DNA of 63,926 nucleotides, the filler included, from Octopus bimaculoides (taxonomy: Eukaryota), in the NCBI RefSeq assembly GCF_001194135.2. It is 6 parts of 6 records of this genome, joined end to end, with 100 filler letters (N's around TTAATTAATTAA, not from the genome) between each part and the next. Parts side by side here need not be neighbours in the genome. Positions count along the whole stretch, not along the records: positions 1 to 19,971 come from NC_068981.1; positions 20,072 to 38,273 come from NC_068986.1; positions 38,374 to 54,569 come from NC_068988.1; 3 more parts are not named here. One strand, given 5' to 3'. The notes beneath the pieces were generated by a model that was not told the origin of the DNA, did not search any database, and was given only the letters and a program-made list of their open reading frames with translations. Position 1 is the first letter of the stretch; each line of letters opens with the position of its first letter. The translations under genes and the position numbers were made by a program. Shown piece by piece: positions 17,846 through 54,569 of this stretch.

Positions 17846-18059
17846 AAGGCGACGAGCTGGCAAAAACGTTAGCGCGCCGGGCGAAATACTTAGCGGTATT
17901 TCTTCTGTCTTTACGTTCTGAGTTCAAATTCCGCCGAGGTTGACTTTACCTTTCATCCTTTCAGTGTCGATAAATTAAGTATCAGTTACGTACTGGGGTC
18001 GATCTAATCGACAGGCCCCCTCCCCCAAAATTTCAGGCCTTGTGCTTAGAATAGAAAAT
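17846..18059 (+). mobile_element. Full-length SINE family B with TSD
   Basis: Pol III A box (tggcaaaaacgttag) and B box (gagttcaaattcc), then core gactttacctttcatcctttc...gataaattaagtatcag. Imperfect TSD atgtttgtttttcattc (17829-17845) / atgtttgttttcgttc (18060-18075). Confidence 0.9.
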
Positions 18060-20071
18060 ATGTTTGTTTTCGTTCGGCTTCCCTGTATGTTTTCACTGTC
18101 CTGTTTTTGTTCCTAAATTTGATACTCCATAAATCCCAAATTTTATTTTGGGATTTATGGGAGCAAACAGATAGAGCGATACATATATACACACGTTAAT
18201 GAATACATTCACGCATATATACATACACATATTCTCATATACATACATGCATTTATAGATACTTAAAATCATTCATACGTGCATAAACATATAAACACTG
18301 ATACTCGCATACACATACATGCTTATATAAATATGGATATACAATAGAAAGTCAAATGAAACAGCATAAATGTATAAACGCGAAAGAACATCACTTTAAT
18401 TGAACGCACACACAGGCGCTCGCAACAACGCACACGCACGTACGTATACACACACATACTTACACACACACACGCACTATACACACACAAAAACATACAT
18501 ACACACACATACATACATATATACATAAATACAATTCATACATACGAATTCATGCATACAGGCACGCATGCATTCATACTTACATGCACACGCTTTCACA
18601 CACAAGCTCACACATGTACGCATACATATATACGTGGAAAGAAGCATTAATAACTTAGTTTTATATACACATATCGTATTTCTTTCTCCATTAATCACTC
18701 ACTTCCCTCTTCTAACTCCACACGTATATATATATATATATATATATATATATATATATANNNNNNNNNNNNNNNNNNNNNNNNNNNNNNNNNNNNNNNN
18801 NNNNNNNNNNNNNNNNNNNNNNNNNNNNNNNNNNNNNNNNNNNNNNNNNNNNNNNNNNNNNNNNNNNNNNNNNNNNNNNNNNNNNNNNNNNNNNNNNNNN
18901 NNNNNNNNNNNNNNNNNNNNNNNNNNNNNNNNNNNNNNNNNNNNNNNNNNNNNNNNNNNNNNNNNNNNNNNNNNNNNNNNNNNNNNNNNNNNNNNNNNNN
19001 NNNNNNNNNNNNNNNNNNNNNNNNNNNNNNNNNNNNNNNNNNNNNNNNNNNNNNNNNNNNNNNNNNNNNNNNNNNNNNNNNNNNNNNNNNNNNNNNNNNN
19101 NNNNNNNNNNNNNNNNNNNNNNNNNNNNNNNNATATATATATATATATATATATATATATATATGCACGCAAACACACATTTATACTTATACATGAACCA
19201 CATACACAAAAGCACGCAGACACACAAACACACACACATGCAATATATTTCATGCTTCGACATTCATACATGACCTCTAAATTCCTTGCAAAATATTATA
19301 TATATTTTTTTAATTTGTTTATTAGTGACAGAGTTGATATTTTCCTTCATATTTATGGAAACTTTAGGTCCCCTATCGACGTCACGAAAAGTATTTGAAA
19401 ACAAATTATTTACAAGATGAGAGGAGAAAAATATTAATACACAAAAAGAAGCAAATAGTGAGATAAACAAAGTCAAATACCATGGAAGTATAAATAATTC
19501 TCTAATATATATATGTGTGTGTGTGTGCGCGCGCGCAGAGAGAAAGAGAGAGAGAGAGAGAAAGAGAAAGAGAAAGAGATAGAGAGAGAAAGAGAAAGAG
19601 AAAGAGAGAGAGAGAGAGCGAGAATTAAGTGATTTTTCGATTCCTGTTTTCTGATATTTATTTACCTACCTGTATTTATCCCGCCTCTTCCGTTCTCTCT
19701 CACACATGAAAATACACGTACGTTCCTACATAGGAATACATGTATCTATTCATATGTCTTTTCCAATACAAGTCATATTTTTATACACTCTGAAATGTTT
19801 GTATTTCTTTTCAACTTTCTCACACTTTTTCTCTCTCCGCCTCTGACCACTCTCTCACTCTCTCACTCTCTCTCTCTCTCTCTCTCATATGTATGTGTTC
19901 TTTTTGTGTGTGTATATACATACATACATGCATACATATATATATATATATATATATATATATATATATATNNNNNNNNNNNNNNNNNNNNNNNNNNNNN
20001 NNNNNNNNNNNNNNNTTAATTAATTAANNNNNNNNNNNNNNNNNNNNNNNNNNNNNNNNNNNNNNNNNNNN

Positions 20072-20417
20072 CCCATCGTACGAGCCGAGACTCATGCGAA
20101 TTTTTGTCTTGAAGTAAGAGCGGAAATCCGCAGTACGAGCACACAAATCATCTCATCTTTAAAGTAATTCGGTTAATAAAGCCAGTTTACATATTTCTTT
20201 TGCATTCTTTTTTTTATAATTGTCATTTTACTTGTAACTACACCTTTTCTGTTTTAAAACCCATAAAAAATATTTTTGAGTGGTTTTGGGGGTGCTGGGA
20301 CGGATTAATTATATTTTTGTTAATTTCAATGGGGAAAATTAATTTGTTAAACGAGTAAATCGTAAGACGAGCTCGGTCATGGAACGAATTAAACTCGTAC
20401 TACGAGGTATCACTGTA
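20072..20417 (-). mobile_element. pogo/Tigger-like MITE end (truncated by scaffold join)
   Basis: Terminus reads TA-CAGTGATACCTCGTAGTACGAG on the minus strand (20394-20417), a pogo-type TIR start. The interior is AT-rich and non-coding. Confidence 0.65.
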
Positions 20418-20519
20418 TATATAACTTAGATATGTTTCGGTCAAAGATTGGGCCAAACTATGTCTAACTTGATAACACCACTTGATAGGATCTGTTAAGT
20501 CATTTTAAAGTTAAGTTTT

Positions 20520-21150
20520 GTAGTATCATGGACCATTCAAGTAAGGAGTTGTTGACTGACATATATCTGGATACAGGTGGCTTATCTGGCATCTCTTAAA
20601 GAAATTTGTCCAGGTTTCGTTCGAAGGTGATAAGATCTTTTTCTTCTTTTATTTGTTTTGAGATAATATTAAATAGAGTAGGACCTGTTGAGGAAAAGAA
20701 ATTGTGTTGCAGTGGATTAATGTGTTGTGAGCCCGAATTGTGTAGGGGTGACCCCAGCCTTAGATGAATTCTGAATTTAATATTAAAGTCGTTTGGGCAA
20801 TGCTGGTAGTATATTCTCCACATGATGTGGCACTTACAGCGACGCTGGAAAGAATAAAGCTTTAATGTTTTAAGTCGGTTCCAATTATCAAGATCAGCCA
20901 GGCCTTTTATATTTTTTTAGTGTTTGCTCTCTGGTTTCTCAATTCTCGTGATGTTTTGTTTGGTTTGGAGAGTGGGGATTAGTATTCTGGGTGTGGTTAT
21001 ACAAAGGAGGAGAGAGGGAGATGATGACATTTTGCTCTCTGGGCCAGGAAGTTATGAGAATCCAGGAGCTCATCCTATGAACCATATCGACTTTTTTGTT
21101 ACTGTGAGCACTCCTGCCAAGACTGATGTCAACAATTGCTCCTAAATCCC
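20520..21150 (-). mobile_element. CR1-like LINE 3' fragment
   Basis: Minus strand reads MWRIYYQHCPND...FSSTGPTLFNIISKQIKEEKDLITFERNLDKFLKEMPDKP...NNSLLEW, with upstream VDISLGRSAHSNKKVDMVHRMSSWIL. Confidence 0.8.
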
Positions 21151-21389
21151 TGATATTATTGGATACTGTGAGCAGTTTTCCTACAGAAAGAAAATCTGAT
21201 TGTTTGAGCGCATTTTTTCTTATCGAAAGTGCATGAGCTCAAGTTTTAGCCTTATTAATATGAATAAATGAATAATAGAAAGTGGACTGAGCAACTCGCT
21301 TTATTACATAACACTACAATTGTTTCAACGTAGATTCACCAGCAGAAACACTGAAGCATTACATAAAATGGCAATTATCATTATTATCA

Positions 21390-53339: not shown

Positions 53340-53407
53340 GATGAGAAGCCATGAAAGCCACTGCCTGGTACTGCATTAGGACATTTATTATTATTATTAT
53401 TATTATT

Positions 53408-53763
53408 GTTCAGTAGTTTTATTTTTATAACGTGCTTTCACTTCACTACCGAGCGCAGCTCTGTGTGCCTTGGGTATGTGCTGTGGTTTGCTGTGATGCT
53501 CTTATGGTTACTGTATTGGAAGTGTTTTGCGTAGGATGTGTGCAGTACCCAGTAGTGCAATTTTCTGTATGTTATATATATTTGTAAGTCCTGGTGTTTT
53601 TGTTATGTATTTGTCTGAATATTTTTTTATTATACCTAAGGCACCTACTATGATAGGAATTGTTTCTGTTTTTAGACTCCACATTCGAGTTATCTCTATT
53701 TCCAAGTCTTTGTATTTTGAAAGTTTTTCCATTTCTTTTCGAGAAACGTTGTCATCTGCTGGT
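53408..53763 (-). mobile_element. 5'-truncated R4/Dong-clade non-LTR retrotransposon within (TAA)n
   Basis: PADDNVSRKEMEKLSKYKDLEIEITRMW...IPIIVGALGIIKK...IQKIALLGTAHILRK is the restriction-like endonuclease C-terminus typical of R4/Dong. Flanked by (ATT)n at 53385-53407 and 53764-53807. Confidence 0.9.
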
Positions 53764-54043
53764 ATTATTATTATTATTATTATTATTATTATTATTATTA
53801 TTATTATAGATAATATAGGACTGTTATGACTCCTCTCGGGGGAATAGCAGTCATAGCAGTCGTATATTATCTATTAAAAAAAAATGAAATAGACTGACAT
53901 CAAATTTCGAACCCGTTGAAGGGACACGAGATACCGAAATATTGTTCAGCAAATTTAATTATGGAACTCTTCATCTTTATTTTATTATTATTATTATTAT
54001 TATTATTATTATTATTATTATTATTATTATTATTATTATTATT

Positions 54044-54120
54044 ATGTTTGACTTTTGTCTTGCATTTGTACAAGTTGGATCCAAGTCTCACCCAGAGACC
54101 TCAAGAGACAACAAGTTAGA
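54044..54120 (-). mobile_element. Short 3' terminal fragment of a probable second (TAA)n-tailed retroelement
   Basis: Minus strand: ...AGGTCTC-tgggt-GAGACTT (7-bp hairpin, 54083-54101)...gtcaaacat, followed directly by (AAT)n at about 53985-54043. Confidence 0.5.
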
Positions 54121-54569
54121 AGTTCTTTCTACTATAGGTATAAGGCCTGAAATTTTGGGGGAGGGTGCGAGTCAATTGCATCGACTCCAGTGTGTAATTG
54201 GTGCTTAATTTATCGACCCCGAAGGGATGAATGACAAAGTCGACCTCAGAACGTAAAGGCAGACGAAATACCTATTTCTTTACTGCCCACAAGGGGCTAC
54301 ACACAGAGGGGACAAACAAGGACAGACAAACGGATTAAGTCGATTTTATCGACCCCAGTGCGTAACTGGTACTTAATTTATCGACCCCGAAAGGATGAAA
54401 AGCAAAGTCGACCTCGGCGGAATTTGAACTCAGAACGCAGTGGCAGACGAAATACCGCTAAGCATTTCGCCAGCTCGCCACCTTTTTAAGAATGACTTCA
54501 AATTTTTGCCACAAGGGCAGCTTACGGGAGGGGATTAACTCGATTACATCAACCCCAGTGCGTAACTAG
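54120..54569 (-). mobile_element. Three stacked or nested SINE family B copies with different tails
   Basis: Core atcgaccccgaa.ggatgaa...gtcgacctc occurs at about 54212 and about 54380; a third tail with acatcaaccccagtgcgtaact lies at 54490-54569. Confidence 0.88.

Follow-up and report, generated by a model that had tools for sequence, protein, structure and literature searches.

The window analysed here, a stretch of 63,926 nucleotides of Octopus bimaculoides DNA (NCBI RefSeq assembly GCF_001194135.2), joins six stretches rich in N gaps and microsatellites. It contains the 3' end of a long interspersed element (LINE) of L1/Tx1 type and a series of short interspersed elements (SINEs) with four types of 3' tail (A to D), and in both kinds of element a small hairpin lies near the 3' end (Table 1). 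A first-pass annotation had proposed that the 4-bp stem of this hairpin varies but stays paired around a CTTGT loop, and thereby connects diverse SINE tails to the LINE; the seven 13-mers cited, as well as three copies keeping 3 bp, were all recovered in place and in orientation. We found a covarying terminal hairpin module in the LINEs, in a derivative with open reading frame (ORF) 1 only and in all four SINE tail types, with similar lengths of the target-site duplications (TSDs). Judging from these comparisons, the hairpin probably serves as the signal by which the ORF2 protein (ORF2p) binds its template RNA, with reverse transcription starting a short fixed distance downstream.

The window LINE, clipped at 52677 right behind GGCCAAT, is a copy of a high-copy family. 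In genome-wide searches (this genome, 2.34 billion bases), 27 of 29 other copies carried GGCCCTTGTGGCCAATAAA (≤3 mismatches) at the 3' end, followed by AAGAAATCA or AATAAAAGAAATCA and then (ATT/ATC)n; the family does end at the motif, as had been claimed. The clade was tentatively assigned to the L1 group because of its ORF2 domains and its nearest solved structure. Pfam models Exo_endo_phos, RVT_1 and zf-RVT (APE endonuclease, reverse transcriptase (RT) and C-terminal zinc-binding domain) matched ORF2 of clade copies, with RVT_1 just below the cut-off in the window LINE's own family and no Pfam match to the ORF2 piece in the window itself; in a PDB search against a reference set without CR1, L2, RTE and I, human L1 ORF2p was nearest (E 7.5e-40) and R2 proteins gave E 2e-21. 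The best named homologues of the LINE protein were hypothetical proteins of Argonauta hians (62%) and Acanthosepion pharaonis (45%), and these searches returned no named Tx1 reference. A zinc knuckle in ORF1 is a feature of the Tx1 clade, and zf-CCHC was seen in one of two upstream ORFs tried (E 0.0023, 18.4 bits, below the 20.8 cut-off). With this weak knuckle, a target preference (see below) and the listing of L1-Tx1 among the active LINEs of Octopus vulgaris (PMC13282606), we use Tx1, as distinct from L1, as a provisional label.

For comparison of 3' ends, 240 LINE loci were examined, 235 of them with a match to the ORF2 C-terminus. Together with the ORF1-only family (family X), these gave 218 located ends (199 distinct), which were clustered on the untranslated region (UTR) upstream of the hairpin. 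Eighteen clusters had at least three copies; one, anchored on a SINE body, was dropped, leaving 17 clusters with 134 copies, and clusters of one or two copies (62 of the 199 ends) stood outside the tests. All 17 LINE-type clusters end in a GTCCCCTCT-like pyrimidine motif, the hairpin, AATAAA and a few more bases, and no cluster majority has poly(A). In the module, a 3-5-bp stem closes a loop of 4-7 nt, and AATAAA is followed by about 5-10 bases; the distance from hairpin to AATAAA is 0-4 nt in 17/17 clusters, and TGTA motifs occur upstream. The stems include GGCC/GGCC, GCC/GGC, AGCC/GGCT, AACC/GGTT, GCCC/GGGC, GTCC/GGAC, GCCT/AGGC, TCCT(A)/(T)AGGA, GATA/TATC, TGAT/ATCA, GATC/GATC and AGGC/GCCT. 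By eye the loops measure 4-7 nt, though the folding program narrows one of them to 3, and they are nearly always T-final. CTTGT, supposed to be the common loop, is fixed in the SINE subfamily majorities but was detected by the stem finder in 5 of the 17 LINE clusters; CTGTGT, TTTAT, CTGGT, TTAAT and TTAT were also found, and since other loops prevail in most LINE clusters, CUUGU was rejected as a clade-wide invariant.

The last 18 nt before AATAAA had a mean folding energy of -3.82 kcal/mol in the 17 cluster majorities, compared with -1.28 ± 0.32 kcal/mol after shuffling (0/1000 reached the native mean) and -1.71 kcal/mol when arms were swapped between clusters (0/20000 permutations folded as well as native). 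In a pair count over 15 hand-chosen rows with 5-nt loops (13 distinct), 94.2% of the cells were paired, as against 0-56% in slid controls; double-sided changes occurred at all four pairs (reached by 14/500 shuffles), and the covariation score was reached by 0/500. About eight lineages, 50-66% alike, emerged from a tree of the DNA for the ORF2 C-terminus, built from 48 rows with three per cluster and without family X. Stems change between and within lineages, including close ones (GCCC/GGGC, GTCC/GGAC, GCCT/AGGC). In several clusters, a second, lower stem could form between UGUU, ahead of the hairpin, and the first bases of AAUAAA; it is conserved on both sides and therefore beyond a covariation test.

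From the genome, 368 SINE copies were collected using only the body and then classed from their flanks, without regard to the stem (A, 31; B, 119; C/D, 114; unclassed, 104). The majority stems are GCCC/GGGC in A, AGGC/GCCT in B, TGGC/GCCA in C and TGCC/GGCA in D, with the loop CTTGT in all, and one tail-B branch has the 5' arm GGGC, giving a G-U outer pair; the subfamily majorities thus differ by compensatory changes, in agreement with the earlier proposal. C and D have a common 27-nt context and differ at one paired position only. Among 6060 genome matches to this context, C in the 5' arm was present in 577, G in the 3' arm in 609 and both in 471, versus 58 expected if independent; half-changed forms were, among the matches listed, no commoner than point decay would give. 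Tails B, C and D lack AATAAA and a young tail-A branch has AGTAAA, with the stem retained in all of them. Exact tail-A ends number at least 9,737 in the genome. In a random sample of 60 stretches of 10 kb (525,054 called bases), CTTGT closed by four Watson-Crick pairs occurred 21 times, compared with 2-12 times (mean 5.0) in 20 block shuffles; visual inspection assigned 18 of these occurrences to SINE tails and one to a LINE-type 3' end, and two were unrelated.

Several of the variants cited from the window turned out to be changes of single copies. Those at 18035 (GCTT), 26455 (loop), 33115, 37762 and 51077 are decay from the subfamily majority and therefore no evidence of covariation; the same is true of the 3' arm (GTCT) at 26556-26568, where the 5' arm GGGC is the true subfamily variant with the G-U outer pair. 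The copy at 43718, described as an orphan, is no SINE: it is a short, 5'-truncated copy of the 3' UTR from another LINE family.

Table 1. Elements of the window that bear on the terminal hairpin (coordinates of the whole stretch)
Feature	Coordinates	Strand	Remarks
5'-truncated L1/Tx1-type LINE, 3' end	52677..53332	-	last ~115 ORF2 codons, ~300-nt 3' UTR; upstream parts of family copies carry RT
ORF2 stop codon of the window LINE	52984-52986	-	
Terminal hairpin of the window LINE, GGCC-CTTGT-GGCC	52680..52692	-	identical to family majority
Young SINE copy with tail A (apparently LINE-captured)	54273..54490	-	ends at 54273; head region of older tail-B SINE directly behind
Tail-A hairpin, GCCC-CTTGT-GGGC	54285..54297	-	identical to subfamily majority and to LINE cluster 57
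Remainder of older tail-B SINE	54126..54272	-	directly behind tail-A copy; decayed hairpin 54136-54148
Tail-D SINE, 3' part	54495..54568	-	cut by stretch end; hairpin TGCC-CTTGT-GGCA at 54507-54519
Tail-B SINE	17846..18058	+	hairpin 18035-18047 with one decay change; 11-nt exact flanking repeat
Tail-B (AGA type) SINE	26545..26756	-	hairpin 26556-26568; 18-nt TSD
Tail-C SINE	26272..26480	+	stem TGGC/GCCA at 26455-26467; decayed loop (CATAT)
Old tail-B SINE	32923..33127	+	decayed hairpin 33115-33127
Old SINE	50887..51090	+	decayed B-type hairpin 51077-51089
C-type tail-only remnant	37740..37790	+	decayed hairpin 37762-37774; upstream SINE body looked for, not found
5'-truncated 3' UTR of another L1/Tx1-type family (L093/L130 type)	43641..43745	+	hairpin GGCC-CTTGT-GGCC at 43718-43730, then (ATT)n

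Tails B, C and D align colinearly as homologues, with mutual scores of 52-92 versus 14-19 to tail A. The likeness of tail A to the terminus of the window LINE over about 40 nt is visible in the alignment, but the best matches lay elsewhere: tail A matched LINE cluster 57 over 60 nt (score 73, z 20), followed by clusters 27, 16 and 28, and the cluster of the window LINE, absent from these top four, was rejected as donor. On these alignments, tail A is best read as a 60-nt capture from a LINE lineage other than that of the window. Convergence of otherwise unrelated tails was rejected on account of the homology of B-D and the capture of tail A; we infer that the SINE tails arose by capture and erosion. 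Tail B aligns with the end of family X from the stem into the bases that follow (z 5.7-7.9). No LINE ending in TGGC/GCCA was found with the one search pattern used.

Family X was found with a LINE-type upstream motif plus the B stem (13 matches; its loci are L388-L400, L402, L413, L415, L416 and L421-L424). Local ORF1-like proteins matched it in tblastn (best E 3e-51), and its 3' end is that of a LINE, with the hairpin module; ORF2 was not found with three ORF2 queries in 13 loci, four of them extended 5.1 kb upstream, with 5' ends not mapped. Having ORF1-like coding and no ORF2 match, family X is therefore likely a non-autonomous, HAL1-like element that would need ORF2p in trans. It is often found in tandem, inserted in the 5' part of Tx1-type elements, and its flanks are common with LINE clusters 30/31.

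Insertion marks are alike in the SINEs and LINEs. By a strict test, TSDs were found for 28 of 178 full-length SINEs (14-25 nt, their ends partly overlapping the element; control 6/300) and, with the test tied to the terminus, for 12 of 134 LINE-type copies (13-22 nt; control 3/300); an unrestricted search on the LINE copies (22/134 vs 15/150 in the control) did not rise above control. The proposed APE-type insertion is consistent with the APE endonuclease of the clade and with the agreement of TSD lengths, while the TSDs ascribed to the window copies stood in part: an 18-nt duplication with a single mismatch at 26556, exact cores measuring 11 and 9 nt at 18035 and 26455, and none convincing at six other elements tried. 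SINE TSDs tend to start with AATAT or ATTAT, the letters that end the SINE, which suggests priming by short base pairing. Elements of both kinds end sharply, about 11-17 nt behind the stem, without poly(A). The ages overlap, with a median divergence of 4.8-15.8% in the SINE groups (sets C and D partly pattern-selected) and 4.5-14.2% in the LINE clusters. Flanks of (ATT/ATC)n were seen in LINE clusters 39 (14/23) and 19 (12/19) and in SINE groups B-ATA (16/42) and D (11/36). Tx1 families are described as preferring microsatellites or other repeats as targets (PMC4494074), and a like preference was found here in the (ATT/ATC)n or (TATC)n flanks, although for microsatellites tail and target are not separated. 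The same non-microsatellite flank recurs behind several copies of LINE clusters 28, 30, 31, 49 and 62 (L308-L367 for the first four), which for clusters 28, 30, 31 and 49 points to insertion into other repeats.

We propose that ORF2p binds the hairpin and begins copying just downstream, possibly primed by a short stretch of pairing of the RNA end with the nicked target. The SINE would have gained the module from LINE 3' ends, recently and whole in the case of tail A and long ago in the case of the common B/C/D tail, after which tails B-D would have lost AATAAA and kept no more than the hairpin, a portion of the pyrimidine run and a terminal AGAA/GAAA. Source copies with a broken stem presumably did not amplify. 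ORF2p may read stem shape plus loop, and the CUUGU loop would then mark the LINE lineages serving the SINE; in the L2 clade, ORF2p binds a 3' stem-loop with the stem read by shape and the loop by sequence (PMC4176376). We favour recognition by ORF2p because three kinds of element dependent on the same enzyme keep the structure and its place while the letters change, and because the SINE, with its presumed Pol III-type promoter, loses AATAAA and not the hairpin. More tentatively, and with less confidence than doubt, one could picture an animal L1 branch without poly(A) whose ORF2p reads a 4-bp hairpin as entry ticket and ruler, and in which a SINE and an ORF1-only element ride, and swap between, several LINE lineages by means of a loosely read 13-nt signal.

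A number of observations weigh against recognition of the hairpin. The stem-length test on the 17 clusters, a noisy one after which the folding-energy test was run, gave 4.06 for the native ends, clear of arm swaps though not of shuffles (mean 3.51, max 4.26). The rows of the pair count were chosen by hand, and the clusters are related, so that with about eight lineages the independent events are fewer than 17. In cluster 19 the stem is down to three pairs beside an A-C opposition. Folded singly, none of seven window copies does better than its own shuffles (z -0.95 to +0.37), and the case therefore rests on comparison, not stability. The C/D count of 471 is one evolutionary event, though a clean one; 104 of the 368 SINE copies could not be classed; most copies have no TSD by the strict test; and tails C and D resemble the sampled LINE ends weakly (best z 3.3 and 5.0).

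AATAAA and the upstream TGTA motifs, too, speak against it, as they also fit a signal for 3'-end processing. The hairpin could have been selected for formation or protection of the RNA 3' end (cleavage near AAUAAA, termination, exonuclease resistance) instead of ORF2p binding, with ORF2p copying whatever RNA ends there. The position of the hairpin before AATAAA in every cluster and the sharp ends are in favour of this explanation, yet the stem outlives AATAAA in tails B, C and D and stands beside AGTAAA in the tail-A branch, and poly(A) has not been copied into any cluster majority; a role in stability is compatible with these last points. Overall we consider a 3'-end role unlikely. Much less credit can be given to pairing kept without selection, through common descent and palindrome-favouring mutation (template-switch correction, or CpG decay in both arms). 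A LINE end with CGCC/GGCG (L204) could indeed yield TGCC/GGCA by two CpG decays, and three decayed single copies of the random sample show chance double changes. However, changes from G-C to C-G and from A-T to T-A and replacements of the whole stem (AACC/GGTT, TCCTA/TAGGA, GATC/GATC) recur at one fixed position in lineages 50-66% alike, and upstream UTR windows score lower in the stem-length test (2.1-3.0 vs 4.06). The least probable of the alternatives is that only tail A has a Tx1-type partner and that B-D were mobilised by another LINE clade, the hairpin being a relic or look-alike. The weak alignment of C and D would be in line with this, as would the activity of RTE, CR1 and Dong-R4 in octopus (PMC13282606, Table 1), their 3' ends lying outside our survey; against it stand the match of tail B to family X and the TSD length, terminal motif and (ATT)n flanks that B-D have in common with the L1/Tx1-type families. 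Recognition by ORF2p remains the reading that we prefer.

As to the SINE itself, ARAGORN found no tRNA and an Rfam search gave nothing relevant; the body presumably resembles the Deu/Nin domain, and we infer a promoter of Pol III type. None of the indexed data sets with a match is listed as RNA. In two runs, raw RNA reads lay equally on both strands; they therefore derive from embedded copies and are uninformative on the end of the SINE's own transcript. A SINE head was found directly behind tail-A SINEs at two fixed positions in 7 of 17 unselected copies, compared with 4 of 232 for tails B-D; such junctions lie in the window (54126-54490, minus strand) and at L185, L191, L201, L210 and L009. 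One junction has 1,980 exact genome matches versus 9,737 exact tail-A ends (patterns of different length), and the junction is present in RNA reads. Tx1 families insert target-specifically into small-RNA genes, and the junctions may reflect either target-specific insertion into SINE heads or template jumping.

Other parts of the window were also inspected. The two SINE copies at 26272-26756 stand tail to tail in opposite directions and form a long imperfect inverted repeat, the fold-back of which accounts for a weak Rfam miRNA match there. At 53400-53830 (minus strand), a piece of another retroelement without the hairpin module lies inside (TAA)n; its C-terminal peptide is what we take to be R4/Dong type. 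An acidic, repeat-rich open frame of 507 codons at 61867-63387 (minus strand), without a Pfam match, is probably a host exon. Five other long frames of the window gave one weak unrelated Pfam match and nothing else, and the two longest "open frames" from the genome search were rejected as N gaps.

The comparative marks of a stringent SINE-LINE pair were found here: homologous 3' ends (strong for A, B against family X, weak for C/D), a covarying stem-loop, concurrent activity and like insertion marks. Stringent recognition has been proposed, likewise from sequence, for the monocot L1 (LINE1-1_ZM with ZmSINE2/3) and Chlamydomonas L1-1_CR/SINEX-3_CR, which show a conserved 3' end, a hairpin with compensatory stem changes and conserved loop letters, and sharing with SINEs (PMC3472496, PMC3747384). 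Those hosts are plants and an alga, and the algal pair ends in poly(A); the octopus clade is animal, Tx1-type and poly(A)-less, has a shorter stem and comprises about eight lineages, and its hairpin recurs in four SINE tail types and in a derivative with ORF1 only. In UnaL2/UnaSINE and ZfL2-1/ZfL2-2 of the L2 clade, a 3' stem-loop also lies near the terminus, with a stem exchangeable if paired and a specific loop (PMC4176376); these have longer stems and experimental proof, whereas the octopus case is known from comparison of sequences. Crocodilian SINEU elements are likewise inferred to be mobilised by Tx1, and Tx1-Mar families are inserted in other repeats, but SINEU has snRNA heads and poly(A) tails, no LINE with the same 3' end is described there, and the link is through target preference instead of the common tail seen in octopus (PMC4494074). 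Like HAL1 and other ORF1-only LINEs, family X combines ORF1-like coding and a LINE 3' end without ORF2; HAL1 derives from L1 (PMC5786205), whereas the coding part of family X is like the ORF1 of the local Tx1-type elements, and its 3' end is formed by the hairpin module. The exchange of LINE-derived tails on one SINE body is known from the tail-swapping HCD SINEs of molluscs (PMC11481361, PMC4824008, PMC4758252), for which the partners reported in bivalves are CR1, CR1-Zenon, L2 and Nimb (PMC11481361); the word Tx1 does not occur in the text of PMC11481361 and PMC4824008.

Human L1 uses poly(A). For human L1 and Alu, recognition of a stem-loop has been hypothesised (PMC5135761). Our literature search, outside of which lay Ohshima and Okada 1994/2005, Repbase, Dfam and supplements, found no report of a Tx1 3' hairpin common with an octopus SINE. 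A hairpin tail of this kind is known for L1 of maize and Chlamydomonas; for an animal Tx1 we did not find it in print. Only three SINEs with L1-clade tails were known to the sources cited, all in plants or algae, and the same sources pose as an open question whether a structured tail or poly(A) guided the ancestral L1 to its RNA (PMC3472496, PMC3747384). A clade of Tx1 type in an animal, with a terminal hairpin that covaries and is shared by a SINE with at least 9,737 exact tail-A copies, would extend this question to animals and point to the enzyme that is likely responsible for a main component of the octopod genome; it would also provide a 13-nt element whose stem and loop are testable against the structures of human L1 ORF2p. 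If a poly(A)-less animal L1 branch of the kind pictured above does exist, its lineages would amount to a mutational scan, made by nature, of the smallest stringent signal known, and would give direct access to the origin of relaxed poly(A) recognition in mammalian L1.

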